Assembly: GCA_037440225.1 (NCBI GenBank)
Contig: JBBIUN010000013.1
Coordinates: 10,936 to 74,935, forward strand
Direction of reading: 5' to 3'
DNA: 64,000 nt
Source: Gemmatimonadota bacterium
Lineage (GTDB): Bacteria; Gemmatimonadota; Gemmatimonadetes; Gemmatimonadales; GWC2-71-9
Each line of letters opens with the position of its first letter. The stretch's first letter is position 1. The position numbers were made by a program, and so were the translations under genes. Of this stretch, positions 50,624 through 64,000 are shown in pieces. The notes below the pieces were generated by a model that saw nothing but the letters and a program-made list of their open reading frames with translations, was not told the DNA's origin and did not search any database.

Positions 50624-51100
50624 ATGTACATCGATCGCTACGAGCGTTTCTGGATGTGGAGCGCAGGCGTCATCTGCGCCGCCTTCTTCGGCGCCATCGT
50701 GATGGGTTTGGTCACCCAGGGCACCCGCCCGCCCAGCCACGTGGAAACCATTGACCCCAAGGGCGTTTGGACCGACGCCCGGTTCGCCGAGCGCGGCGTG
50801 CGCGTGAACTCCGACGGCAGCGTCACGGTGACCGCCGTCGCCATGATGTTCGCCTTCCAGCCCAACGAGATCCGCGTACCCGCCGGACGCCCCGTTACCT
50901 TCCGGCTGGCCAGTCCGGACGTGGTGCACGGGTTCGAGATCGTGGGTAGCAACGCCAACACCATGGTCATCCCCGGTTACGTGAGCCAGTTCACCACCAC
51001 CTTCACCACCCCGGGCGAGTATCTCATCGTCTGCAACGAGTACTGCGGCCTGGGCCATCACTCGATGATGGGCAAGCTCATCGTGGAGGAGGTGCCATGA
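50624..51100 (+). CDS. cbaB: ba3-type cytochrome c oxidase subunit II (CuA cupredoxin)
   Basis: CuA site HGF...CNEYCGLGHHSM. One N-terminal TM helix. Confidence 0.9.
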   Translation: MYIDRYERFWMWSAGVICAAFFGAIVMGLVTQGTRPPSHVETIDPKGVWTDARFAERGVRVNSDGSVTVTAVAMMFAFQPNEIRVPAGRPVTFRLASPDVVHGFEIVGSNANTMVIPGYVSQFTTTFTTPGEYLIVCNEYCGLGHHSMMGKLIVEEVP

Positions 51101-52719
51101 ACACCGAACGCCGCTTGGCCACCGCCAACATCGGGATCGCCGTCGCCGCCTTCGGGGTGGCAGCGGCCATGGCCCTGATGCAGGCGGTCTCCCGCGCCAA
51201 TCTCGACCTGCCCTGGCGGTCTCCCAAGATGTACTACCTCTCGGTGACCGCCCACGGCGTCCTGATGGCGCTGGTGTTCACCACCTTCTTCATCATGGGC
51301 CTGGGGATCGCACTCACTACCCACGGCCTCGGCCGGCCGCTCCGCTGGCCGCGGATCGGCTGGGCCTCGTTCTGGGTGGCCGTGGCCGGGACGCTGGCTG
51401 CGCTCTGGGCGATTTTCTGGGGCAAGGCCACGGTACTCTACACCTTCTACCCCCCACTCCAGGCCCACCCCGCGTTCTACATCGGCTTGACGCTCCTGGT
51501 GGTGGGCTCGTGGGTGTGGAGCGCAGTGATCGTCGCGACCTACCGCGCCTGGCGGGCCGAGCATCGCGAGCAACCCGTCCCGCTGGCGGTCTTCGGGATG
51601 CTCGCCACGATCATCGTCTGGCTGCTGGCCACGATCGGCGTGGCGGCGGAGATGTTGTTCCAGCTCATCCCGTGGTCCTTAGGGCTCACCCGCACCGTAG
51701 ACCCGTTGCTGGCACGCATGCTGTTTTGGTTTTTCGGCCACCCGCTGGTCTATTTCTGGTTGCTGCCGGCCTACGTGATCTGGTACACCGTGCTCCCCAA
51801 GGCCGCGGGCGGCAAGCTCTTCAGCGACCCGCTGGGCCGCATGGTGTTCGCCTTGTTCATCATCCTGTCCACGCCGGTAGGGTTCCATCACCAGTTCATG
51901 GACCCTGGCATCGCTTCGGGCTGGAAGCTGTTGCACACCTTCAACACGCTGGGCATCCTGTTTCCCAGCTTCGTGACCGCGTTCACGGTGGTGGCCTCGC
52001 TGGAGATCGCCGGCCGTGCTCGCGGCGCCACCGGCTGGTTCGATTGGCTCGGTAAGCTCCCCTGGGGCGATCCCTTGGTCGCTTCCGTCCTGCTGAGCAT
52101 GCTGTTGTTCGCGGTGGGCGGCTTCGGCGGCGCGATCAACGCCGCCTACGGCATGAACTCCATGGTTCATAACACCGCCTGGGTCCAGGGTCACTTCCAC
52201 CTTACCGTGGGAAGCGCCGTCGCGCTCACCTTCATGGGCACGGCTTACTGGCTGGTGCCCAAGCTGGTGGGCCGGGAGCTGGAACTGGCCCTCCTCGCCA
52301 AGGTGCAGCCCTATCTCTGGTTCGCAGGCATGATGCTCTTTTCGATCGCCAACCACGTGACCGGCTTGATGGGCATGCCCCGGCGCATCTACGACCCGAC
52401 CTACCTCGGCAGCACGGTCGCGGAGCGATGGGGCGGCCTCACCGCGCTCTCCGCGCTGGGGGGCGTCTTTCTCTTCGCCAGCGCCACCTTTTTCCTCTTG
52501 GTGATGCTGGGAACGGTGCTCGCCGGGCGCCCCACCACGGATACCGCCATCAGCTTCGCCGAGCCGCTGGAGGGTGAGCCGGCCAAGCGCCTGGTCTTCG
52601 ACCGGCTGGGACTCTGGATCACGGTGGCTGTCGTGCTGGTCTTGATCGCCTACGCCTATCCCCTAGCCGACCACCTCAGCATGACGACCTACGGCTCCCC
52701 CGGCTTCAAGCCGTTCTGA
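51097..52719 (+). CDS. cbaA: ba3-type (B-family) cytochrome c oxidase subunit I
   Basis: 540 aa and polytopic, with FFGHPLVYFWLLP and HHQF motifs. Overlaps subunit II by ATGA. Confidence 0.9.
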   Translation: MNTERRLATANIGIAVAAFGVAAAMALMQAVSRANLDLPWRSPKMYYLSVTAHGVLMALVFTTFFIMGLGIALTTHGLGRPLRWPRIGWASFWVAVAGTLAALWAIFWGKATVLYTFYPPLQAHPAFYIGLTLLVVGSWVWSAVIVATYRAWRAEHREQPVPLAVFGMLATIIVWLLATIGVAAEMLFQLIPWSLGLTRTVDPLLARMLFWFFGHPLVYFWLLPAYVIWYTVLPKAAGGKLFSDPLGRMVFALFIILSTPVGFHHQFMDPGIASGWKLLHTFNTLGILFPSFVTAFTVVASLEIAGRARGATGWFDWLGKLPWGDPLVASVLLSMLLFAVGGFGGAINAAYGMNSMVHNTAWVQGHFHLTVGSAVALTFMGTAYWLVPKLVGRELELALLAKVQPYLWFAGMMLFSIANHVTGLMGMPRRIYDPTYLGSTVAERWGGLTALSALGGVFLFASATFFLLVMLGTVLAGRPTTDTAISFAEPLEGEPAKRLVFDRLGLWITVAVVLVLIAYAYPLADHLSMTTYGSPGFKPF

Positions 52720-52819: not shown

Positions 52820-53554
52820 TCAGCGGCCGAGATACTGCTGAAACACCACCATGCCCACCAGCGTCAAGCACACCGCCAGTGCTACGCCCGCGCGACGCGC
52901 CTGGTCGTACGCTTCCGGCAGCAACTCCACCAGCACCATGAAGACCATGGCCCCGGCCGCGAAGCCGATGCCGTAGGGCAAGGCCGGAGCCACAGCTTCC
53001 ACGAAGAGGAACGCCGGCACCGCCATCAGCGGCTGCGGCAGGGACGAAACCACGCTCCAGGCCGCGCACCCGGCGACCCCCACGCCCCGCGGGTAGAGCA
53101 CCGCACTGATCGCCAAGCCCTCCGGCACGTTGTGCACCGCGATGGCGATAGCGATGGCCGCGGCCAGCGAAACGCTCCCGCCGAAGGCCACGCCGACCGC
53201 GACGCCTTCCGAGAAGGAGTGCACCGTCATCACGACCATCATGAGCAGCACCCGCCGGGCGCCTCCGCGCCCGGCGGCGGCCCACCGCAACTGGCATGTC
53301 GCCAGGAGCCGCTGCGTCGCCAGAATGAACAGCACGCCTGCCGTGGCCCCGACGACGGTCTCCCCGGCGCCGTGCCGCGTCCCCTCGGCCACGAGCCCAA
53401 AACTTGCGCCGAGCATGAGACCCGACGCCACGGCGTTGGCCCACGCCACCCCCGCCGGCGAGACGGTACGGACCAAAGCGAAGGGCAAAGCGCCCAAGCC
53501 CGTCGCGGCCGCGGTGAGCAGGGCGTACCAGAACACCAGCGCCGCGTCGGGCAC
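52820..53554 (-). CDS. ZIP-family divalent metal transporter
   Basis: Carries HSFSEGVAVG and AIAVHNVPEGLA. GTG start directly follows the upstream TGA. Confidence 0.85.
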   Translation of the reverse strand: MPDAALVFWYALLTAAATGLGALPFALVRTVSPAGVAWANAVASGLMLGASFGLVAEGTRHGAGETVVGATAGVLFILATQRLLATCQLRWAAAGRGGARRVLLMMVVMTVHSFSEGVAVGVAFGGSVSLAAAIAIAIAVHNVPEGLAISAVLYPRGVGVAGCAAWSVVSSLPQPLMAVPAFLFVEAVAPALPYGIGFAAGAMVFMVLVELLPEAYDQARRAGVALAVCLTLVGMVVFQQYLGR

Positions 53555-54283
53555 TCAGCGAACTCCGCTCGCCAGCACCACGATCCCCATAGCCAGAATC
53601 GCCACCAGGGCGACGCTGGTGGGCCCCGCCTGCCGATAACAGTGCGGCAGCAGCTCAGCCATCACCAAGTAGACCAGGGCCCCTACCGCCACGCCCAACA
53701 CCCACCCGACCAGCGCCGGAGCGGCGGACAGCACAGCGAACGTGGTGACGGCCAGCAGCACCTGGCTGACCCGCGTCGCGCCGGCCGCCGCCACGGCCCC
53801 GCCCAAACCTAGCCCCCGGCTGTGCAGCACCGTCGCAAGGACCGCCACTTCGGCCACGTTGTGGACTGCGATCGCCGAGGCCATGAGCAACCCCAACGCG
53901 GGCGCCAACACCATGGCCACCCCGATCGCGATCCCTTCGGGCGCCGTGTGCAGCATGTTGACCAACAGCAACTGGTAGCCGTAGTCCGGGGCCGTCTCGC
54001 CCAAGCGATTCAAATCCAGCTCCTGCATACCCGCCGCCCGGTGCACCCAGTACAGGAACCCGATGCCCGCCGCTGCCCCCACGGCCGCCCGAGCAGGCGC
54101 CGGCCCGAGACCTGCGGCCATCAGGAGATACGCCCCGCCCAACATCAACCCAGCCGCCACCCCGTTGGCCCAGCCCAGCCAGGACGCCGGCAATCGGCGC
54201 CGGAACGCCACCGGTATGGCGGCCAAGCCCGCAGCAGCCATGGCAACACTCGCATAGGCCAGCACCGCCAGCGTGGGGTGCAC
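53555..54283 (-). CDS. ZIP-family divalent metal transporter (divergent paralog)
   Basis: Carries HTAPEGIAIG and AIAVHNVAEVAV. The second metal motif is degenerate. Confidence 0.8.
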   Translation of the reverse strand: MHPTLAVLAYASVAMAAAGLAAIPVAFRRRLPASWLGWANGVAAGLMLGGAYLLMAAGLGPAPARAAVGAAAGIGFLYWVHRAAGMQELDLNRLGETAPDYGYQLLLVNMLHTAPEGIAIGVAMVLAPALGLLMASAIAVHNVAEVAVLATVLHSRGLGLGGAVAAAGATRVSQVLLAVTTFAVLSAAPALVGWVLGVAVGALVYLVMAELLPHCYRQAGPTSVALVAILAMGIVVLASGVR

Positions 54284-54402: not shown

Positions 54403-55716
54403 GTGCCTGCACCCATCCGCCCTAGCGGCGCCGGCGGATGGCGCGCTACGTTTGAGCTGGGAAGCCCTCCCGAGACCGCGACCGTGGCCGAACCGTGTAA
54501 CCCGCCAGACCGGCTCCAGCAGCGCCTGGAGCGCTTGGTTCGCGCCGGCATCCGTATCTACGCCGAGCGGGAGCTGCCAGCCGTGCTCCAACAGGTGGTG
54601 GATTCCGCGCGCGAGGTGATCGGCGCGCGGTACGCGGCACTGGGGGTGTTGAACCCGGCGGGCACCGGCTTAGGGACCTTTGTGACCAGCGGCATCAGCG
54701 CCGAGGAGCACGCCCGCATCGGCCAACCGCCTCAGGGGCACGGCATCCTGGGCCTGCTCATCCGCGATCCCAAGCCCTTGCGGCTCGCCAATCTCACCTG
54801 CCACCCGAGCTTTCACGGGTTTCCTCCCCACCATCCCCGCATGCGCTCGTTCCTGGGCGTCCCCGTGGTGGGGCGCCAAGGGCCCATCGGCAACCTCTAC
54901 CTCGCAGAGAAGCTGGGTGCGGAGGAATTCAGCGCTGAAGACGAGAGCATCGCGGTGATGCTGGCGGCCCAGGCGGCGGTGGCGGTGGAAAACGTGCGGC
55001 TTATCGAAGAGACCCAGCGCCTGCTGGGGGACCTCCGCTCCATGCAGCGGGCGCGGGATCGCTTCTACGCCATGATCAACCACGAGTTGCGCAATGCGCT
55101 CACCGCGGTGTACGGGTGGGCCGATCTGCTCATCCGGCGCGGAACCGAGGGCCTGCCCCGCGCCGCCATCGAAGTGTACGAATCGGCCGAACGCACCCTG
55201 ACGCTGCTCAACGACCTCCTCGACTTGAGCCGCCTCGATGCCGCGCAGCTGGTGCCCGTAGTTCGAGAAACCAACGCCCGCGACGTCATCGGCGAAGCCA
55301 TCCGAGCGGTGCTGCCCGCCGCCGAAGCCCGCCAGGTCCGCATCGAGACCGTGGCCAAAGACGGCGAGCTGCTCTGCCGCACCGACCCGGTCCGGGTCCG
55401 GCAAATCATGATCAACCTGCTCTCCAACGCCGTCCGACACAGCCCCACGGGCGAGACCGTCCGCGTCGAGGTCAAGGACAGCGAGTCCCGGCTCCGCATT
55501 GACGTGGTGGACTGCGGCGAAGGCTTGAGCCCCGAGGAGCAGGCCATCATCTTCGATGCCTTCGTGCGAGCCGGCTCCGAACACGAACGGGGCACCGGCT
55601 TGGGGCTCACCCTGTCCCGCCAGCTCGCCCGACTGCTGGGCGGGGACCTCAAGGTCGAGAGCCAGAAGGGAGCCGGCGCTCGCTTCATCCTGGATGTCGC
55701 CCGGTTTCTGAGCTAG
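54403..55716 (+). CDS. GAF-domain sensor histidine kinase (cytoplasmic)
   Basis: GAF region (ARYAALGVLN...FLGVPV...GNLYLAEK), H-box INHELRNALTAV and GTGLGL. Start uncertain (alternative GTG 54484). Confidence 0.85.
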   Translation: MPAPIRPSGAGGWRATFELGSPPETATVAEPCNPPDRLQQRLERLVRAGIRIYAERELPAVLQQVVDSAREVIGARYAALGVLNPAGTGLGTFVTSGISAEEHARIGQPPQGHGILGLLIRDPKPLRLANLTCHPSFHGFPPHHPRMRSFLGVPVVGRQGPIGNLYLAEKLGAEEFSAEDESIAVMLAAQAAVAVENVRLIEETQRLLGDLRSMQRARDRFYAMINHELRNALTAVYGWADLLIRRGTEGLPRAAIEVYESAERTLTLLNDLLDLSRLDAAQLVPVVRETNARDVIGEAIRAVLPAAEARQVRIETVAKDGELLCRTDPVRVRQIMINLLSNAVRHSPTGETVRVEVKDSESRLRIDVVDCGEGLSPEEQAIIFDAFVRAGSEHERGTGLGLTLSRQLARLLGGDLKVESQKGAGARFILDVARFLS

Positions 55717-55779: not shown

Positions 55780-56466
55780 ATGAAGATCCTGGTAGTCGAG
55801 GACGACCGCAAAGTCGCCGGATTCATCGAACAAGGCCTGCGGGAGGAAGGCTACGCCGTGGACGTCGCCCGTGACGGGGACGAGGCGACCACCTTGGCCC
55901 ACGTCAACGACTACGACGCCATCCTGCTGGACCTGATGCTCCCCAAGAAAAACGGCCTCCAGGTCGCCTCCGAATTGCGGCGGGAGGGCCGCCGCACGCC
56001 GATCCTCATGCTCACCGCCCGGGACTCCACCGAAGACGTGGTCCGGGGACTGGATGCCGGTGCGGACGACTACCTTGCCAAACCGTTCAAGTTCGACGAA
56101 CTGCTAGCCCGCTTGCGGGCTTTGACCCGCCGGGGCGGGGCCGCCAGACTCGACCGCCTGTCCTACGGGCCTCTCGAGCTCGACCGCCTGCGCCACAAAG
56201 CCCGCGCCGCCGGGCACGTGCTCGATCTCACCCCCCGGGAGTTCCAACTCCTGGAACACTTCATGCTGCACCCGGAAGAGGTCATCCGCCGGACCGAACT
56301 CCTGGAAAAGGTCTGGGACATGCACTTCGACCCCGAAAGCAACGTGGTGGACGTCCACGTCGGCAACCTGCGGCGCAAGCTCCGGGAAGCCGGCTGCGAT
56401 GGACTGATCCAAACGGTGCGGGGGGTCGGCTTCTGCCTCAAGAGCCCTGAGGCCGCTGACGCCTGA
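55780..56466 (+). CDS. OmpR-family response regulator (CusR/CopR-like)
   Basis: Carries MKILVVEDD...ILLDLMLP and a winged-helix C-terminus (LTPREFQLLEHFM...VRGVGF). Confidence 0.9.
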   Translation: MKILVVEDDRKVAGFIEQGLREEGYAVDVARDGDEATTLAHVNDYDAILLDLMLPKKNGLQVASELRREGRRTPILMLTARDSTEDVVRGLDAGADDYLAKPFKFDELLARLRALTRRGGAARLDRLSYGPLELDRLRHKARAAGHVLDLTPREFQLLEHFMLHPEEVIRRTELLEKVWDMHFDPESNVVDVHVGNLRRKLREAGCDGLIQTVRGVGFCLKSPEAADA

Positions 56467-57854
56467 TGTTTTCGCTGCGCCGCACCCTGGCGGTGCGGTT
56501 CTCCCTTACCATCTTTGCTGCCCTGCTGCTGATCGCGCTCTGGGCGTTCTTGGGCGCCCAGCACACCTTGCGCCAGCAGCTCGATAACGGCCTCAACAGC
56601 GCTCTCAACCTGGAACGCGACGTGCTGGCCTCCGGCAGCTCCCTGCCCCCCCACCCCGGCCCGGTGGATTTCGAGAGCTTTGTCCAACACCTGAACCGCT
56701 TCGTTGTGGTGCGGGACACCCACGGCAACATCCTGGACATGAACACCGCCCTGGCCGGCGATCTCCCCTTGGACTCGAGCGCCTTCGCCGCCGCCCTGGC
56801 CGGCCGTACCGTTTGGGCGACCCATCGCTGGGGCGATCAGTGGATCCGCTCCGTCTATGCCCCCGCGCCAGCCGCCAGCCCCCCCGGCATGCGCGTGGTG
56901 CAGGTCACCGCCTCGCTCAGCCAGCTCGAACGCGAAAACCGCGAGGTCTTGTTCTTGCTGTTGGGCACCGTCCTGTTGAGCACCGTGGCCACCGCCTTCG
57001 GCGCCCTGTGGCTGGCCGGCTCGGCCGTGCGCCCCGTCACCGAGATCACCGAGCAGGCCCAGCGGATCGGCCCGCGCGTGGCGGGCCAGCGCATCACCGC
57101 GCATGCCGACGTCGCCGAGTTCCAGGGCCTGGTCAAGGTGCTCAACTCGATGCTGGAACGCCTGGATCGCGCCTTCGAAACGCAACGCCGCATCATCGCC
57201 GACGTGGCCCACGACCTGCGCACGCCGATCACGGCCGTTCAGGGCGAACTGGAGGTCGCCCTGCGCGGGCAGCGAAGTCCGGAACAGTACCGGGTCGCCC
57301 TGACCAGCATCCTGGAAAGTGTCGAGCACTTGAGCAGCATCAACGAGGCGCTTATCCTTCTCGCCCGAATCGAGGCCGGCGAGCTTCGGCCCCAGCCCGC
57401 CCGGGTGGACCTTGCCCTGCTCGCGGCCGCCGCCGTCCAGCGGGTGCATCCCCGTGCCGGGGGCCGCCCGCTTCACTTCCAGCGCGTAGGCGACGGAGAC
57501 ACCACCGTATGGGCCGATCCCGCGATGATCGGAGTCATGCTGGATCAACTGCTCGATAACGCCGTACGCCATACGCCGCCCGAGACCCGGGTCGAAACCC
57601 TGGTCACCGGCAATCACGGCCAGGTCACCGTCGCCGTGCGGGACAACGGGCCTGGGATCCCGCCCGAAGTCCTGCCCTATCTGTTCGAGCGCTTCTACCG
57701 AGCCGATCCGGCCCGCTCCCGTACCGCCGGGCCCGGCCTGGGCCTCACCGTTGCGGCCGCCATCGCAGACGCTCATCACGGCGCCATCCGCGCGCACAAT
57801 CTGCCCTCGGGCGGGCTCGAGGTCGCCGTGACCCTCCCCACCGGATCCGCCTGA
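56466..57854 (+). CDS. Membrane sensor histidine kinase (CusS-like: 2 TM, HAMP, HisKA, HATPase)
   Basis: H-box VAHDLRTPITAV, plus DNGPGI and GPGLGL. ATG overlaps the regulator stop (TGATG). Confidence 0.9.
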   Translation: MFSLRRTLAVRFSLTIFAALLLIALWAFLGAQHTLRQQLDNGLNSALNLERDVLASGSSLPPHPGPVDFESFVQHLNRFVVVRDTHGNILDMNTALAGDLPLDSSAFAAALAGRTVWATHRWGDQWIRSVYAPAPAASPPGMRVVQVTASLSQLERENREVLFLLLGTVLLSTVATAFGALWLAGSAVRPVTEITEQAQRIGPRVAGQRITAHADVAEFQGLVKVLNSMLERLDRAFETQRRIIADVAHDLRTPITAVQGELEVALRGQRSPEQYRVALTSILESVEHLSSINEALILLARIEAGELRPQPARVDLALLAAAAVQRVHPRAGGRPLHFQRVGDGDTTVWADPAMIGVMLDQLLDNAVRHTPPETRVETLVTGNHGQVTVAVRDNGPGIPPEVLPYLFERFYRADPARSRTAGPGLGLTVAAAIADAHHGAIRAHNLPSGGLEVAVTLPTGSA

Positions 57855-58091: not shown

Positions 58092-59306
58092 ATGACGATG
58101 AACACGCTGCGCTCCGGTCTGGCTGCGCTCGCCGGCGCCCTGGCCCTCGCGGTCTCGAACGTACGGCCCGCCCCGGCCATCCCGGCCTTCGCCCGGCGCT
58201 ACCACGTCAGTTGCCAGTTGTGCCACAACCCCATCCCCAAGCTCACCGCCTTCGGGGAACGGTTCGCCGCCAACGGGTATCGCTTCGCTCCTGGAGAACA
58301 ACCCCGGGACTCCGCCGGCACCGGGGACTCGCTCCTGGTGCTGCTGGGCCAGCTTCCCCTGGCCGTCCGCCTGGACGCCTACGCCCAGGCCTACGCCAAC
58401 GGCCGAGCGGCGACGGACCTCGAGCTTCCCTACAGCCTCAAGCTGTTGAGTGGGGGCTCGATCTCCGGCGACCTGTCGTACTACCTCTACTTCTTCTTGT
58501 TCGAACGCGGCGAGGTGGGAGGCATCGAGGACGCGTTCGTGTACCTGAACGATGTGGCCGGCACGCCGGTGGACGTCGCGGTGGGTCAGTTCCAGGTGTC
58601 GGACCCGCTCTTCAAGCGGGAACTGCGGCTCGAGTACCAAGATTATGCCGTCTACCGCACCCGCGTGGGCAGCCAGCCCGCCGACTTCACCTACGATCGC
58701 GGCATCCTGGTGAGCGCCGACGTGGCCGGATTCACCGCCTCCGCCCTCGTGGTCAACGGCAACGGCCGGGGTCCTGCCGGAGGCAACCGCCGGCTCGATG
58801 ACGACCCCAACAAGAACTTCATGGGTTACCTCACCCGCGACCTGGCCAAGGGACTGCGCCTGGGTGCACTAGGGTACTACGGGCGCCAACAAGGTGCTGC
58901 AGCCGCCGGCCCTCTGGTCACTAACCGGATCCGGATGTGGGGAGCCGACGCTACCCTAGAGGCCGGACCCGTTGAACTGAACGGCCAGTTCATTTGGCGA
59001 GAAGACGACAAACCCACCTTCAACCCCGGCGAGCCTAAGACCATTACGAAGGGAGGCTTTGGCGAACTCATCTTCCGGCCTCGCGGCAACCGCTGGTACG
59101 CCGTGGGCCTCTACAACCTCGTCAAGGCCGACCGCCCGCTCCTCGACCCGAGGCTGGGCGGGCCCGCCAACATCGCCCGCTACGAAACCGTGACCGCGGG
59201 CTTGGGATACCTGCTGCGACGCAACGCTCGTGTCTTCGCCGAAGGCACCTGGGATCGCCAAGCGCAAAGTACCGCTTGGACGGTCGGCCTGGTGACGGCC
59301 TTCTAG
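58092..59306 (+). CDS. Outer-membrane beta-barrel protein with one N-terminal CXXCH haem motif (Cyc2-like fused cytochrome-porin candidate)
   Basis: Signal peptide, then FARRYHVSCQLCHNPIPKLTAFGERFAANGY (CXXCH at 58212-58226). About 350 aa follow with alternating beta-strand-like pattern, ending in the aromatic terminus ...WTVGLVTAF. Confidence 0.75.
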   Translation: MTMNTLRSGLAALAGALALAVSNVRPAPAIPAFARRYHVSCQLCHNPIPKLTAFGERFAANGYRFAPGEQPRDSAGTGDSLLVLLGQLPLAVRLDAYAQAYANGRAATDLELPYSLKLLSGGSISGDLSYYLYFFLFERGEVGGIEDAFVYLNDVAGTPVDVAVGQFQVSDPLFKRELRLEYQDYAVYRTRVGSQPADFTYDRGILVSADVAGFTASALVVNGNGRGPAGGNRRLDDDPNKNFMGYLTRDLAKGLRLGALGYYGRQQGAAAAGPLVTNRIRMWGADATLEAGPVELNGQFIWREDDKPTFNPGEPKTITKGGFGELIFRPRGNRWYAVGLYNLVKADRPLLDPRLGGPANIARYETVTAGLGYLLRRNARVFAEGTWDRQAQSTAWTVGLVTAF

Positions 59307-59446
59307 CGCGCCCCAGATGAGCCCAAAGAAACGGGCCAACCGCCCCTGGGGCCCTGGCCGCGCCGTCGCCCGCCCGGCACACCGTCGCCTGGTGCCGGCC
59401 TACCGGTTAACTTCCAGCCGACTACCAGACTCTTCGTGGGGGACGT

Positions 59447-59848
59447 ATGGCCGGTCGGACATCGGGCACACTAACCGTAGCAGTCCTCGCCCTGGGAGCA
59501 GGCACGTTGGCGGCACAGCAGCAAACCAGCTCGCTGCCGCCAGGAGTGACGGCCCAGATGGTCAAAGAAGGAGAGACCCTCTTCAAGGGCGCCGGGCTCT
59601 GCGCGGCATGCCACGGTCCGGACGGCAAGGGCGTACCTAACCTCGGGGCCAACCTCACCGACCAGCAATGGCTCCACAGCAAGGGCACCTACGACGACAT
59701 CGTCAAGCAGATCATGACCGGGGTCACGGCGGATAAGTCCACCACCGGAACGGTCATGCCACCCAAGGGCGGCTCCAACCTCACCGACGCCCAGGTGAAG
59801 GCCGTGGCGGCCTACGTGTGGACCTTGAGCCACCCGCCCAAAAAATAA
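59447..59848 (+). CDS. Periplasmic class I c-type cytochrome
   Basis: Signal peptide present. Haem site GAGLCAACHG, with distal Met in GTVMPPKG. Confidence 0.9.
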   Translation: MAGRTSGTLTVAVLALGAGTLAAQQQTSSLPPGVTAQMVKEGETLFKGAGLCAACHGPDGKGVPNLGANLTDQQWLHSKGTYDDIVKQIMTGVTADKSTTGTVMPPKGGSNLTDAQVKAVAAYVWTLSHPPKK

Positions 59849-59866: not shown

Positions 59867-60493
59867 TTACCGCCAAGGCCGGGGGCCCATGTGTCCCCGC
59901 GGCACCCAGAAACGCATCCCCTGCCCGGGACGGCCGAACCACCGCTGGCGCATCGCCATCCGCCTGGCGTCCGCCCAACCCTCCAGCCGACCGCGCTGCT
60001 CGGGCGTGAGCACCGCCTTCGCTTGGGCTGCCGCGACCAGGTGCGCCAGCCTCGCGGCCTGCATCGCTTGCATCGCCGCCTGCGCGTGGCTGCGCACTTG
60101 GTTGGCGTCGGGCGCGGGCTGCTTCCAGATCTCGGCTAACTGATCCCAATGGGTCCGGGCCTCGGCGGTGGCCTTGTCAGCCGCCTGCCGGGCCTCCTGG
60201 GCCAATGCCTCCAGCCGGGAGACTTGCTCGGCGCTCAAGCCCAGCGCCTGGCGCCGAGCAATGAGCAACCGGGGAGCGTAAAACCCCGCCGCGCGGAACT
60301 CCCGCCCCGGTCCCTGCATGCCCATCATCCCGGGCATACCCATCATGCCTCCCATGCCCCTCATCCCCATGCGGGGCCCCTGGGCTGGTGCCGGCTGCGG
60401 GGGCGGAGGCTGCTGTTGCTGCTGCTGTTGCGCCGCCAGTGGCCCGGCCATCAGAACCAACGGTACCGACAACGCCAAGATCTTCGAGCCCAT
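59867..60493 (-). CDS. Spy/CpxP-family periplasmic protein with poly-Gln and Met-rich N-terminal region
   Basis: Signal peptide present. Q7 run (60410-60430) and MGMRGMGGMMGMPGMMGM (60317-60370). LTxxQ-type motifs are LSAEQ and LTPEQ. Confidence 0.8.
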   Translation of the reverse strand: MGSKILALSVPLVLMAGPLAAQQQQQQQPPPPQPAPAQGPRMGMRGMGGMMGMPGMMGMQGPGREFRAAGFYAPRLLIARRQALGLSAEQVSRLEALAQEARQAADKATAEARTHWDQLAEIWKQPAPDANQVRSHAQAAMQAMQAARLAHLVAAAQAKAVLTPEQRGRLEGWADARRMAMRQRWFGRPGQGMRFWVPRGHMGPRPWR

Positions 60494-60643: not shown

Positions 60644-61720
60644 ATGCGCACCTTGCTAGGGACCTCCACTGCTCTTGCGTGCTTGGGCCTGGCGGGCCTC
60701 GTGACCCCCGGGTCCGCCCAGACCACGCTGCACACCCAGGCGGCCGAAATCACCCTCTCCGGCCGCATCCATACGCAGTTCAACACCACCTCGGTCGCCG
60801 CCGAGCCGGGCTCCGAGTTTCTCATCCGCCGGGCACGCCTGGATGCCACGGTCCGGGTGAACGATTTCGTGAGCGGGTTCGTGCAGCCGGAATACGGGCA
60901 GGGCAAGGTCCTGCTGCGCTTGGGATACCTGCGCCTCAACTTCCACCGGGCGCTCCATGCCACCCTGGGCCAGTTCCGCCGGCCGTTCGACGTGTTCCAG
61001 ATCACCAGCTCCACCGACATCCTGGTGGTCGAGCGCACCGGCGACCTACGCGGCGTGGATAGCTGCACCGGCATCGGGGGCTTGTGCTCCTTCAGCCGGT
61101 TCACCGAACAGCTCCAATACGGCGGGCCGGACATCGGGATCGTGCTCGACGGGACGGACGCCAAGGGCAAAGTGGCCTACTTCGTCTCCGTGGCCAACGG
61201 GACCGGGGGGAACGTAGCGGATGAAAATGGCGCCAAGTCCTTTGCCGCCCGCCTGGTCGTCTCTCCCTCACCGAGCGTGCACCTGGCAGGCAACATGGCG
61301 GTGCACGATTACCCCAACGCGATTACCCGAAAGACGGCGTACGCCACGGTGCTGGGCGCCGACGCGGAGGTCGGATCCTTCGCGCGCGGTTTTCACCTGC
61401 AAGCAGGCGCCATGACGGGCGCCAACTGGCGGTATATCTCTGGCGGCACGCCGGCCAGGTTCGCCGCCGCCCAAGTGATCGCCACCTACAGGTTCCCCAT
61501 CCACCGCGCTCCCTATGCCGAGGCCGTGGAGCCCCTGGTCCGGATCAGCTGGGGCGATCCCGACCACTCCGCCCCGCAGGACGGCGGCTGGCTGCTGACG
61601 CCAGGGCTGGTCTGGCACATTACCGGCCGCAACAAGCTCGGAGCCAACCTCGACGCGTGGCGCCCCCAGCGGGGCCCCGGTGCGTGGGGCCTCAAGCTGC
61701 AGTCGTATCTCTTCTTCTAG
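60644..61720 (+). CDS. Phosphate-selective porin O/P-like outer-membrane porin
   Basis: ATG 60644 with a signal peptide. Carries LSGRIHTQF...FLIRRARLD...LGQFRRPF and the C-terminal ...LQSYLFF. The 5' part of listed ORF 60149.. is antisense to the CpxP-like gene. Confidence 0.8.
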   Translation: MRTLLGTSTALACLGLAGLVTPGSAQTTLHTQAAEITLSGRIHTQFNTTSVAAEPGSEFLIRRARLDATVRVNDFVSGFVQPEYGQGKVLLRLGYLRLNFHRALHATLGQFRRPFDVFQITSSTDILVVERTGDLRGVDSCTGIGGLCSFSRFTEQLQYGGPDIGIVLDGTDAKGKVAYFVSVANGTGGNVADENGAKSFAARLVVSPSPSVHLAGNMAVHDYPNAITRKTAYATVLGADAEVGSFARGFHLQAGAMTGANWRYISGGTPARFAAAQVIATYRFPIHRAPYAEAVEPLVRISWGDPDHSAPQDGGWLLTPGLVWHITGRNKLGANLDAWRPQRGPGAWGLKLQSYLFF

Positions 61721-61891: not shown

Positions 61892-62359
61892 ATGAAAGCT
61901 CATATGCGTATGCGGAAATCCGAATTCGGTGCCCTGGCCCTTTGGGTAGGGGTCGCCGCCCTGTCGGCCTGCGGCGGCGAGCGGGAAGCCCGCGAACGTG
62001 AAGGCGAGGTCCCGTCGGCTGCCCGTCCACCGTCCGCGACAGCCGCCGCCCCGGCCCCGGCAGGTCCAGTGGACGAGGCCCTCGCGGAACGAGGCGAGCG
62101 CGTCTTCCAGACCAAGGGTTGTGTGGGCTGCCACACGATCGGCAAGGGGAGGCTGACCGGGCCCGACTTGAAGGGCGTCACCGAACGCCGGCCCTACGAA
62201 TGGTTCGCTCCCTGGGTCATGAATCCCGATTCCATGCTCAAGGTGGATCCGATCGCCAAGCAGCTCCTGGCCGAGTACATGACGCCCATGCTGGGCATGG
62301 GGGTCACGGCCGACGAAGCGCGGGCACTCTGGGAGTACCTGCGGCACGAATCACACTAA
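61892..62359 (+). CDS. Lipoprotein-type monohaem c-type cytochrome immediately upstream of nosZ
   Basis: MKAHMRMRKSEFGALALWVGVAALSACGG (lipobox). Haem site KGCVGCHTIG and distal Met region YMTPMLGMG. Start may be 61892, 61904 or 61910. Confidence 0.85.
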   Translation: MKAHMRMRKSEFGALALWVGVAALSACGGEREAREREGEVPSAARPPSATAAAPAPAGPVDEALAERGERVFQTKGCVGCHTIGKGRLTGPDLKGVTERRPYEWFAPWVMNPDSMLKVDPIAKQLLAEYMTPMLGMGVTADEARALWEYLRHESH

Positions 62360-62376: not shown

Positions 62377-64000
62377 ATGCTCACTCGACGACGCGTACGT
62401 TGGCTGTCGCTGGCGGCCTTGGGTGCCGTGTTCGCGGCAGCCGGGCTCGAGTCCTGTGGCGGGCGAGGCGGAGCCGACATCGGCAGCATCGCCCGCGAGC
62501 GCGGCCTCACCGACGCGGATGTCGTGGCGGCGGTCAAGACCTACCAGCCCACCGGCAAGATGGACGAGTATCTCATGTTCGCCTCGGGCGGGCATTCGGG
62601 GCAGGTCTTGGTGATCGGGATCCCCTCCATGCGCCTGCTCAAGGTCATTGCCGCGTTCACGCCGGAGCCCTGGCAGGGCTATGCCACCGGCGCCGACGAG
62701 CACAAGGCCCTGATGCGCAGCGCGCGCATGGCCAACCACGATATCACGTGGGGCGACACCCACCACCCGGCGCTGTCGGAAACGGACGCCGACTACGATG
62801 GGCAGTTCCTGTTCATCAACGACAAGGCCAACCCCCGCATCGCGGTGATCGATCTGCGGGACTTCGAAACCAAGCAGATCGTCACCAACCCCAACATCGG
62901 CACGGATCATGGAGGCGCCTTTGTCACGCCCAACACCGAGTACGTGATCGAGCCGTCCCAGTACTCGGTACCGCTGTGGAAGGAGTACGCCGGGCTGGAC
63001 AGTTACCAGCAGGACTACCGTGGCCTAGTGACGTTCTGGAAGTTCGACCGCCAGCGGGGGCGCATCGCCGAGGACCAGTCGTTCTCCATCGAGCTGCCGC
63101 CCTACTGGCATGACCTTTCCGACGCCGGCAAGGGACCCTCGGCGGGCTGGGCGTTCCTCAACTCCTTCAACACCGAGATGGCCACCGGCGGCATCGAGGA
63201 GGGCAAGCCTCCCTTCGAGGCCGGCGCGTCGCAGAATGACATGGACTATCTCCATATCATCAACTGGCAGAAGGCAGCCCAGGTCGCGGCGCAACCGGGC
63301 AAGGCTCGGGCCCTGCGCGGCATGAAGGTCATTCCCTTGCAGACCGCCATTGACGAGGGGCTGGTGTACTTGGTCCCCGAGCCCAAGAGCCCGCACGGGG
63401 CGGACGTGACGCCCGACGGTGCCCGCATCGTGGTTTCCGGCAAGCTCGACCCCCACGTGACGGTCTATTCGTGGTCCAAGATCAAGGCGGCCATAGACCA
63501 GAAGCAGTTCAGCGGCAAAGACCGCTACGGCATCCCCCTGTTGGACTTCGCCTCCGTGATTGACGGGCAACTGGAACTCGGCCTGGGACCGCTCCACACC
63601 CAGTTCGACAACAACGGGAACGCCTACACCAGCCTCTTCCTCGAGACCAAGGTTGCCAAGTGGCGGCTCGACCCGCTTCAGCTGCTGGAGAAAATTGACG
63701 TGCATTACAACGTGGGGCACATTGCCGCGGCCGAAGGCGATACCAAGTCTCCGGACGGCAAGTACCTGGTCTCCCTCAACAAGTGGTCGCTGGACCGGTT
63801 CAACAACGTGGGTCCGCTGCTCCCCCAGAACTTCCAGCTCATTGACATCTCCGGCGAGCACATGCAGCGGCTCTACGACATGCCCATCGGCATCGGCGAG
63901 CCCCACTACGCCCAGATCATCAAGGCCGACAAGCTCAAGCCCTTTACCGTCTATCCCCAGATCGGCTACGACCCCGGCACCATGGGTCCCGCCCGCGACG
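62377..64000 (+). CDS. nosZ: Nitrous-oxide reductase, clade II (atypical, Sec-type); 5' 541 codons, runs off the window
   Basis: Not in the ORF track because there is no stop. My translation from ATG 62377 (GGAG SD) gives MLTRRRVRWLSLAALGAVFAAAGLESCGG...KMDEYLMFASGGHSGQVLVIGIPSMRLLKVI...WGDTHHPALSETDADYDGQFLFINDKANPRIAVIDL...PKSPHGADVTPDG...GPLHTQFD...HYNVGHIAAAEGDT...GEPHYAQI. This is the NosZ propeller with the CuZ His ligand contexts. Confidence 0.9.
   Translation, partial: MLTRRRVRWLSLAALGAVFAAAGLESCGGRGGADIGSIARERGLTDADVVAAVKTYQPTGKMDEYLMFASGGHSGQVLVIGIPSMRLLKVIAAFTPEPWQGYATGADEHKALMRSARMANHDITWGDTHHPALSETDADYDGQFLFINDKANPRIAVIDLRDFETKQIVTNPNIGTDHGGAFVTPNTEYVIEPSQYSVPLWKEYAGLDSYQQDYRGLVTFWKFDRQRGRIAEDQSFSIELPPYWHDLSDAGKGPSAGWAFLNSFNTEMATGGIEEGKPPFEAGASQNDMDYLHIINWQKAAQVAAQPGKARALRGMKVIPLQTAIDEGLVYLVPEPKSPHGADVTPDGARIVVSGKLDPHVTVYSWSKIKAAIDQKQFSGKDRYGIPLLDFASVIDGQLELGLGPLHTQFDNNGNAYTSLFLETKVAKWRLDPLQLLEKIDVHYNVGHIAAAEGDTKSPDGKYLVSLNKWSLDRFNNVGPLLPQNFQLIDISGEHMQRLYDMPIGIGEPHYAQIIKADKLKPFTVYPQIGYDPGTMGPARD

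Follow-up and report, generated by a model that had tools for sequence, protein, structure and literature searches.

A 404-residue Gemmatimonadota protein as a putative Cyc2-family cytochrome-porin: homology, gene neighbourhood and proposed role

Introduction

The leading candidate for a marker gene of microbial Fe(II) oxidation is Cyc2, whose significance beyond the classical iron oxidisers is under debate. A 64-kb stretch of a Gemmatimonadota contig (JBBIUN010000013.1, positions 10,936 to 74,935; hereafter the window) encodes a 404-amino-acid (aa) protein that an initial annotation, made by reading the DNA alone, took to be a Cyc2-like fusion of a monohaem cytochrome and a porin, followed by a periplasmic cytochrome c. 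The locus raises two questions: whether this protein is a genuine Cyc2, and, if so, from which donor and towards which sink it would carry electrons in these bacteria.

As defined by Keffer et al. in 2021 (PMC8406198), Cyc2 is a protein of at least 365 aa in which a signal peptide precedes one CXXCH, flanked just upstream by the signature AXPXFAR[Q/K][T/Y] and, four residues downstream, by PXL, and which includes a 16-strand porin structurally similar to OprO/OprP. Fe(II) oxidation has been demonstrated for the Cyc2 proteins of Acidithiobacillus ferrooxidans, Leptospirillum and Mariprofundus ferrooxydans PV-1, which belong to different parts of the family (PMC8406198), and was recently added for a Nitrospirota homolog, that of ‘Ca. 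Mariimomonas ferrooxydans’. Cyc2-like genes in metagenome-assembled genomes (MAGs) of Gemmatimonadota are already known from metagenome annotation (PMC9769843, PMC11316326) and may represent another clade than the one described here; some published Cyc2 phylogenies make no mention of the phylum. That Cyc2 and denitrification genes occur together in MAGs is likewise an established theme.

Results and discussion

Homology to characterised Cyc2

The 404-aa protein, whose length lies above the 365-aa Cyc2 minimum, begins with the n/h/c arrangement of a Sec signal peptide (MTMNTLRSGLAALAGALALAVSNVRPAPA|IPAF...), in which a basic n-region and a hydrophobic core precede PAPA, itself directly ahead of a conserved IPAF. 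Cleavage is predicted after PAPA from the AxA rule, placing the predicted mature N-terminus at the conserved IPAFAR motif, as in the alignment of Acidithiobacillus Cyc2. The haem region reads AIPAFARRY-HVS-CQLCH-NPI-PKL. The initial annotation had described a 404-aa protein with a signal peptide and a single CXXCH (CQLCH) at nucleotides 58212-58226, and each of these elements was recovered in place (Table 1).

Conservation of the motif was examined at two depths. In an alignment of 40 homologs, P31, F33, R35, C41, C44, H45, P49 and F404 are invariant. All of the 120 closest homologs carry exactly one CXXCH at the same position, the conservation check that the initial annotation had suggested; the spacing from CXXCH to PXL is three residues in 119 of 119 matched homologs, the Leu of PXL is present in 117, and a C-terminal Phe closes 119 of the 120 proteins. 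With a single motif, fixed in position in 120/120 homologs, and with C41, C44 and H45 invariant, the CXXCH is not a chance occurrence.

The signature departs from the published form at one residue. AIPAFARRY fits AXPXFAR[Q/K][T/Y] except for Arg at the [Q/K] position, such that the strict pattern misses it and a consensus reading accepts it. Among the 120 closest homologs this position is occupied by R (85), K (22), L (10), Q (1) or T (1), and the residue after it is Y in 109; more distant representatives of the family are mostly canonical, with FARKY or FARQY. Keffer et al. removed sequences without PXFAR[Q/K][T/Y] before tree building (PMC8406198), and because that motif was required, most of the Gemmatimonadota clade would have been filtered out of their tree. 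The strict pattern would reject about 80% of the clade, and motif-filtered surveys may therefore undercount it.

Searches of Pfam, NCBIfam and PDB sequences returned no match for the 404-aa protein, an outcome that is uninformative because genuine Acidithiobacillus Cyc2 has no Pfam match either. Reference Cyc2 sequences were obtained through a rusticyanin search for rus operons (query sequence identical to PDB 1CUR), which yielded 20 Acidithiobacillus-type loci. One of them (L006) encodes, in order, a 495-aa protein without a Pfam match, a dihaem cytochrome c, an orf, COX2, COX1, an orf and a cupredoxin/rusticyanin, matching the known A. ferrooxidans rus operon order, cyc2-cyc1-orf-coxBACD-rus.

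Comparison with these references was made at increasing depth. A hidden Markov model (HMM) built on the Gemmatimonadota alignment matched the first rus gene in six loci (hmmsearch, E ~1e-9); the haem motif of the rus-operon Cyc2, LPSFARQT-GWS-CAACH-TSY-PQL, aligns in register with that of the window protein; and BLASTP of the window protein against rus-operon Cyc2 gave E = 3e-9, with 25% identity across residues 10-134. When two shallow alignments, one of Gemmatimonadota and one of rus-operon Cyc2, were compared by hhalign, the probability was 96.5%. Two deep profiles, the first from a diverse set of 35 proteins homologous to the Acidithiobacillus one, with ‘cytochrome C [Acidithiobacillus ferrooxidans]’ at its head, and the second from the window protein with 39 diverse representatives, aligned with 99.45% probability (E = 3.9e-22) over 352 columns, a span that takes in the signal peptide, the haem motif and nearly the whole barrel. 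An alignment of this extent shows the protein to be a true Cyc2 homolog along its whole length. The Cyc2-like identity put forward in the initial annotation is thus borne out by a motif in register with one conservative substitution and by BLASTP, HMM and profile-profile homology to rus-operon Cyc2, and we regard the protein as almost certainly a Cyc2-family outer-membrane cytochrome-porin. The silence of every Pfam and NCBIfam model about a cytochrome domain might instead suggest an ordinary porin that carries a CXXCH by chance and binds no haem; however, bona fide Cyc2 shares that silence, the CXXCH and its flanking motif are invariant in the family and common to Acidithiobacillus Cyc2, and this explanation is extremely improbable.

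The family is large. A word-indexed database search found at least 4243 homologous proteins at E up to 1e-3, and an exhaustive profile search of 1.84 billion representatives at 50% identity returned 3109 at E<=1e-3, 772 at 1e-10 and 151 at 1e-30. The named close homologs all come from Gemmatimonadota/Gemmatimonadales MAGs or from the unclassified ‘bacterium HR33’, and every named homolog is annotated ‘hypothetical protein’. A large and tightly conserved clade, labelled as hypothetical in databases, is accordingly truly homologous to Cyc2, and the finding is a well-supported, unsurprising addition, as a member or a sub-clade, to a known family. New here are the explicit demonstration that homology to Acidithiobacillus Cyc2 extends over the full length, the FARRY variant missed by the strict motif filter, a conserved module of cytochrome c, two-component system and ZIP genes, and a hyper-conserved segment at residues 165-205.

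Likeness to Acidithiobacillus Cyc2 extends to the overall layout: a signal peptide is followed by PxFAR..-3-CXXCH-3-PxL in identical register, a single haem site precedes a C-terminal porin barrel with an aromatic C-terminus, and a class I c-type cytochrome gene directly follows. The two nevertheless differ in several respects, since identity is only about 25% and is found by BLASTP over the first ~125 residues only, the Acidithiobacillus protein measures ~480-510 aa against 404 aa here and carries FARQT in place of FARRY, and the rusticyanin and aa3 oxidase operon in which it lies is absent at the window locus. The Acidithiobacillus host is an acidophilic lithoautotroph, whereas the host here is apparently a Gemmatimonadota heterotroph, to judge from the named homologs and the gene content of the window. 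Cyc2(PV-1) of M. ferrooxydans and the ‘Cluster 1’ Cyc2 proteins of neutrophilic iron oxidisers (PMC8406198) are alike by published description in their signal peptide, one CXXCH, PXL, length above 365 aa and 16-strand porin modelled on OprO/OprP, and in the signature if it is read as a consensus; the filter applied to the tree of that study would reject the window protein for the Arg at the [Q/K] position.

A separate observation concerns the rus operon itself. In Acidithiobacillus ferruginosus CF3 (L004, NZ_CP130948.1) and A. ferrianus MG (L007, NZ_CP127524.1), a complete rus-type operon with cyc2 lies on plasmid-titled records of 51 kb and 62 kb, respectively, and A. ferrianus also has a chromosomal copy.

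Predicted barrel and a hyper-conserved segment

An AlphaFold2 model, built from the 40-sequence alignment and without haem, has a mean predicted local distance difference test score (pLDDT) of 68.6 and a predicted template modelling score of 0.71, and contains exactly 16 strands (at least three residues, DSSP) between residues 90 and 403. Within the barrel, pLDDT is mostly 80-94 over the C-terminal half and mostly 53-81 for the first strands, at residues 90-240. The initial annotation had pointed to amphipathic beta-strand character and to the terminus ...TVGLVTAF, which find their counterpart in the 16 predicted strands and in the invariant F404. It had also suggested a structural check for a 16-strand barrel, and here Foldseek against the PDB agreed with the strand count, the top matches being the 16-strand porins OmpT/OmpU, OmpM1, OmpF and Omp32, with OprP (2o4v) ranked 5th and OprO (4rjw) 41st (porin matches at E ~1e-11 to 3e-10, TM-score ~0.5-0.57).

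The likeness to OprP/OprO (PDB 2O4V, 4RJW) and to general 16-strand porins lies in the predicted barrel fold. Those porins have no cytochrome domain, and the window protein does not belong to their family at the sequence level, giving no Pfam match to PF07396 (phosphate-selective porin O/P) at E up to 1. The general task proposed for the window protein is also that of MtoAB, PioAB and MtrCAB, which connect extracellular iron with electron carriers of the periplasm through the outer membrane. Their cytochrome is a distinct decahaem protein that runs through a larger porin, whereas the window gene encodes one polypeptide with one CXXCH and 16 predicted strands.

The most conserved part of the protein is neither the haem region nor the barrel as a whole. 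Mean pairwise identity is 62% in the barrel and 68% in the haem region but reaches 82% over residues 165-205. This segment lies between strands 5 and 6 and is mostly non-strand, with little strand assigned by DSSP at residues 169-200 and pLDDT below 50 at residues 176-182. In the 40-sequence alignment it is a run of invariant charged and aromatic residues, its invariant positions being G165, Q166, F167, Q168, S170, D171, R176, E177, L178, R179, L180, D184, Y188, R189, Y201, R203 and G204. It may be an inward-folding loop that lines or shapes the pore or contacts the haem domain.

The probable cytochrome c partner and a proposed electron path

Gene neighbourhoods were compared across 83 homolog loci, comprising 80 metagenomic loci and long contigs, with further long contigs added later; single loci are cited below by number. 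The next plus-strand open reading frame (ORF) after cyc2 encodes the soluble class I cytochrome c (CAACH) that the initial annotation had named, matched by the Pfam models Cytochrom_C and Cytochrome_CBB3 (Table 1), and no terminator-like site was found between the two genes in the window. A homolog of this 133-aa cytochrome lies immediately downstream of cyc2 in 37 of the 65 loci with enough flank, and any ORF with a CXXCH does so in 43. Seven of eight long-contig loci have the downstream cytochrome c, the exception being L001, with multihaem cytochromes instead. The pairing that had been read from the window alone is therefore conserved in most homolog loci, and the 133-aa cytochrome c is the probable electron acceptor of the porin-cytochrome.

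We lean towards the reading that the protein is a Cyc2-family cytochrome-porin that takes electrons, most probably from Fe2+, for the periplasmic cytochrome c; that it is the physiological Fe(II) oxidase of its host has about even chances. In such a scheme the protein would be exported by Sec, lose its signal peptide and then receive one haem c at C41/C44, and its C-terminal ~315 residues would form a 16-strand barrel in the outer membrane, within or against which the short haem domain would be held. The haem would be reduced by a soluble compound or ion, most probably Fe2+, met in the pore or on the outside of the cell, and the electron would pass to the cytochrome c encoded downstream and from there to a respiratory terminal enzyme. 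Candidate sinks encoded nearby are a two-subunit haem-copper oxidase and a clade II nitrous-oxide (N2O) reductase, the latter to be reached via its own lipoprotein cytochrome c. Expression would probably be under the control of the adjacent GAF-kinase, response regulator and heavy-metal-type sensor kinase.

Table 1. Features of the cyc2-like gene, its product and the surrounding genes (positions in the 64-kb window)
Feature	Position	Strand	Basis
cyc2-like gene, fused monohaem cytochrome c and 16-strand outer-membrane porin (predicted)	58092..59306, stop codon included	+	ORF, 404 aa, Cyc2 homology
Sec signal peptide, residues 1-29	58092..58178	+	sequence reading; model helix at residues 3-19
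Cyc2 signature A-I-P-A-F-A-R-R-Y	58176..58202	+	consensus AXPXFAR[Q/K][T/Y]; P31, F33, R35 invariant
CXXCH haem c attachment site (predicted), CQLCH, C41-H45	58212..58226, within FARRYHVSCQLCHNPIPKLTAFGERFAANGY	+	C41, C44, H45 invariant
PXL motif, P-K-L	58236..58244	+	proline is fourth residue past the CXXCH histidine
Beta-barrel domain, residues 90-404	58359..59303	+	16 predicted strands, outer-membrane-protein-type C-terminal Phe
Most conserved segment, residues 165-205 (GQFQVSDPLFKRELRLEYQDYAVYRTRVG...TYDRG)	58584..58706	+	mean pairwise identity 82%
Periplasmic monohaem class I cytochrome c, 133 aa, CAACH, signal peptide	59447..59848	+	PF00034 E = 1.3e-13; PF13442 E = 1.1e-12
GAF-domain histidine kinase, first gene of upstream triad	54403..55716	+	Pfam GAF/HisKA/HATPase_c on orthologs
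OmpR-type response regulator	55780..56466	+	best model TIGR01387 heavy-metal response regulator, below curated cut-off
Membrane sensor histidine kinase	56466..57854	+	best model TIGR01386 heavy-metal sensor kinase, full length, below cut-off
Two tandem ZupT-like ZIP divalent-metal transporter genes	52823..54283	-	NCBIfam ZupT below cut-off; Pfam Zip on orthologs
Divergent two-subunit haem-copper oxidase: 158-aa CuA-type subunit II, 540-aa subunit I	50624..52719	+	NCBIfam CoxB, CtaD
Second class I cytochrome c, lipobox-like LSAC, directly upstream of nosZ	61892..62359, start codon approximate	+	PF00034 E = 2.4e-10
Sec-dependent (clade II) nitrous-oxide reductase NosZ, runs past window end	62377..64000	+	TIGR04246 683.5 bits, cut-off 625

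Regulators and metal-related neighbours

A triad of GAF-kinase, response regulator and sensor kinase genes stands immediately upstream of cyc2 in 14 of 39 loci, and the response regulator is ~83-90% identical across loci whose Cyc2 proteins are only ~60% identical. Between the GAF kinase and the oxidase sits the ZIP pair, with a ZIP homolog in nine other loci besides the window. These recurring ZIP/ZupT-like importers beside the module were counted in favour of an Fe(II)-linked Cyc2; one genome also has FeoAB and an iron-dependent repressor. The Feo linkage is confined to that genome, L025 and L106 being the same locus, and was dropped as an iron clue on that account.

On the other side of the cytochrome c gene, and divergent from it, lies a gene for an LTXXQ/‘Heavy-metal resistance’ (Spy/CpxP-like) periplasmic protein (59867-60493, minus strand), present in L104/L105 too. 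Its product has a poly-Gln/Pro tract and then a Met/Gly-rich stretch (MGMRGMGGMMGMPGMMGMQG) resembling methionine-rich metal-binding segments. Genes for Usp and CBS-domain proteins precede the haem-copper oxidase at the other end of the block.

These neighbours allow a different explanation, namely that the protein serves as a metal-stress device, which would limit toxic uptake by oxidising Fe(II), or a different reduced metal (Cu(I), for example), on the cell surface, would be switched on by the adjacent heavy-metal-type two-component system and would dump the electrons into the respiratory chain. The upstream regulator and kinase score best against heavy-metal CzcRS/CusRS-type models, two ZupT-like importers travel with the module, the LTXXQ protein with its Met/Gly-rich stretch is encoded next to the cytochrome c gene both in the window and in L104, stress-type Usp and CBS genes flank the block, and the host is heterotrophic in appearance. 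The two-component matches nevertheless fall below curated cut-offs, and the system occurs in only 14/39 loci, the cytochrome c partner being far more widespread; moreover, a dedicated periplasmic cytochrome c with oxidase/reductase linkage fits harvesting of electrons as well as their dumping. Taken together, we consider a metal-stress function unlikely, although it deserves to be kept in view. The conserved neighbours, namely cytochrome c, metal-type two-component system, ZIP and, in some genomes, oxidase and NosZ, offer handles on the role of Cyc2 in heterotrophs.

Candidate terminal enzymes

The two-subunit haem-copper oxidase scores far under the CtaD/CoxB cut-offs (145 vs 670 bits), indicating a divergent type that may be a B-type oxidase or NO-reductase-like, and it lies beside the module in the window, L002, L025/L106, L036 and L104/105. 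It is a possible terminal electron sink for the Cyc2 pathway proposed above.

Towards the end of the window, the module is followed on the same strand by nosZ and its associated cytochrome c; orthologs of this cytochrome occur in L002, L104 and L106. The cyc2...nosZDFY arrangement recurs in L104/L105 (Cyc2 74% identical) and L002 (59% identical), and in the orthologous loci nosZ is followed by a 200-aa unknown gene and then by nosD, nosF and nosY. With cyc2 and its cytochrome c a few kb upstream of cytochrome c-nosZ-nosD-nosF-nosY in the window, L104/L105 and L002, the protein could be seen as belonging to the nos cluster and serving specifically to feed electrons to the neighbouring N2O reductase. 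The wider comparison speaks otherwise: NosZ was confined to those loci, counted as 1/35 in the neighbourhood census and as 3 loci plus the window in a second count, and no metagenomic locus whose flank reached 5 kb had it; L106 has the same block of oxidase, ZIP, two-component system, cyc2 and two cytochromes c with Feo genes where nos would be; and the two units are kept apart in the window by a porin gene and a divergent LTXXQ gene. A dedicated donor role is very unlikely for the window protein, and as a family feature it was rejected by the synteny census. Because these metagenomic loci lack NosZ and L106 has Feo instead, the NosZ link is lineage-specific and no property of the family.

The Feo genes of L106 (12158-15437, minus strand) consist of feoB and a fused FeoA/iron-dependent-repressor gene (dtxR), a ferrous-iron uptake system, and come after cyc2-cytochrome c-cytochrome c.

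Were the Cyc2 reading to hold together with a NosZ sink, these common inhabitants of soil and sediment would couple Fe(II) oxidation to the reduction of N2O, which would matter for sinks of greenhouse gases. We view such Fe(II)-N2O coupling as a minority, lineage-specific possibility.

Alternative wiring and the choice of substrate

Two loci show a different environment. In L001 (9303-17212) and L003 (10206-17194), cyc2 has as neighbours several genes for multihaem cytochromes and one, common to both loci, for a ~500-aa protein without a Pfam match; L001 also encodes a molybdopterin oxidoreductase, and L003 a Rieske protein with a fused cytochrome b/c complex. Here the same porin-cytochrome seems to be wired differently, possibly for extracellular electron transfer.

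Such company, multihaem cytochromes with a molybdopterin oxidoreductase in one locus and with a Rieske/cytochrome b complex in the other, invites the thought that the protein is a general outer-membrane electron conduit that physiologically does not work on iron, exchanging electrons instead with humic or flavin shuttles or solid surfaces, or acting outward as a reductase. A survey of Gemmatimonadota states that annotation cannot separate iron oxidation from reduction (PMC11316326), and the function of Cyc2 in divergent clusters is acknowledged to be uncertain (PMC8406198). All Cyc2 homologs assayed so far, however, oxidise Fe(II), a single haem in a 16-strand pore suits a small dissolved ion over a bulky shuttle or a solid (Keffer et al., PMC8406198), and multihaem neighbours occur in only 2-3 of 88 loci. 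A general conduit is, in our judgement, distinctly improbable.

The preferred reading, electron uptake from Fe2+ by a Cyc2-family protein, has points against it as well. The haem region (residues 22-86) has pLDDT below 50, and the model consequently gives no placement of it relative to the pore. Arg occupies the [Q/K] position in the window protein and in ~71% of the clade, which the strict published filter excludes. The Acidithiobacillus partner is the dihaem Cyc1 (229 aa), whereas the cytochrome here is a monohaem protein of 133 aa. An Fe(II) role for the Gemmatimonadota clade would be carried over by transfer from other Cyc2 proteins, and it is precisely for divergent homologs that Keffer et al. 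warn about function (PMC8406198). The regulators score best against Cu/Zn/Cd-type heavy-metal systems rather than a known iron sensor, and all below curated cut-offs.

The character of the host belongs to the same side of the balance. Genes for secreted peptidases and amidohydrolases lie densely in the window between 9474 and 41241 (two M14, M20, S46, S9/DPP-IV, penicillin amidase and amidohydrolase), a region that also encodes a BNR/sortilin-like protein of 1117 aa, and no autotrophy genes were found within its 64 kb. Because the window is peptidase-rich and bears no sign of lithoautotrophy, the host looks like a protein-degrading heterotroph, and it is therefore not obvious why it would need energy-conserving Fe(II) oxidation. 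No tRNA or Rfam RNA genes were found across the whole window.

One further reading would accommodate several of these features at once. The Gemmatimonadota clade might be a functionally distinct Cyc2 lineage, marked by the FARRY Arg, an unusually conserved barrel and the 82%-identical loop between strands 5 and 6, and embedded in a metal-sensing regulon, with Fe(II) as an auxiliary donor. The regulon may consist of the ZIP importers, the GAF kinase, the heavy-metal-type two-component system, cyc2 and the cytochrome c gene, and in one sub-lineage it may adjoin the haem-copper oxidase and clade II NosZ. If this were true, heterotrophs abundant in soil and sediment could supplement their electron supply for reducing N2O (or O2) with dissolved Fe(II); we hold it to be a rather doubtful proposition.

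Other observations at the locus

Between the LTXXQ gene and the nosZ-associated cytochrome c, the window encodes an outer-membrane porin without haem (60644-61720, plus strand), with a weak Porin_O_P (PF07396) match (E = 1.8e-4); its homologs follow cyc2 and cytochrome c in about eight other loci. The idea that it is a haem-less paralog of the Cyc2 barrel was unsupported (hhalign, 19% probability).

In at least six loci, among them L104 (9662-9883), L106 (9687-9908) and L002 (7668-7889), a gene for a YgaP-like transmembrane protein of 73 aa stands between the sensor kinase gene and cyc2. The window, with only 237 bp between these two genes, does not have it.

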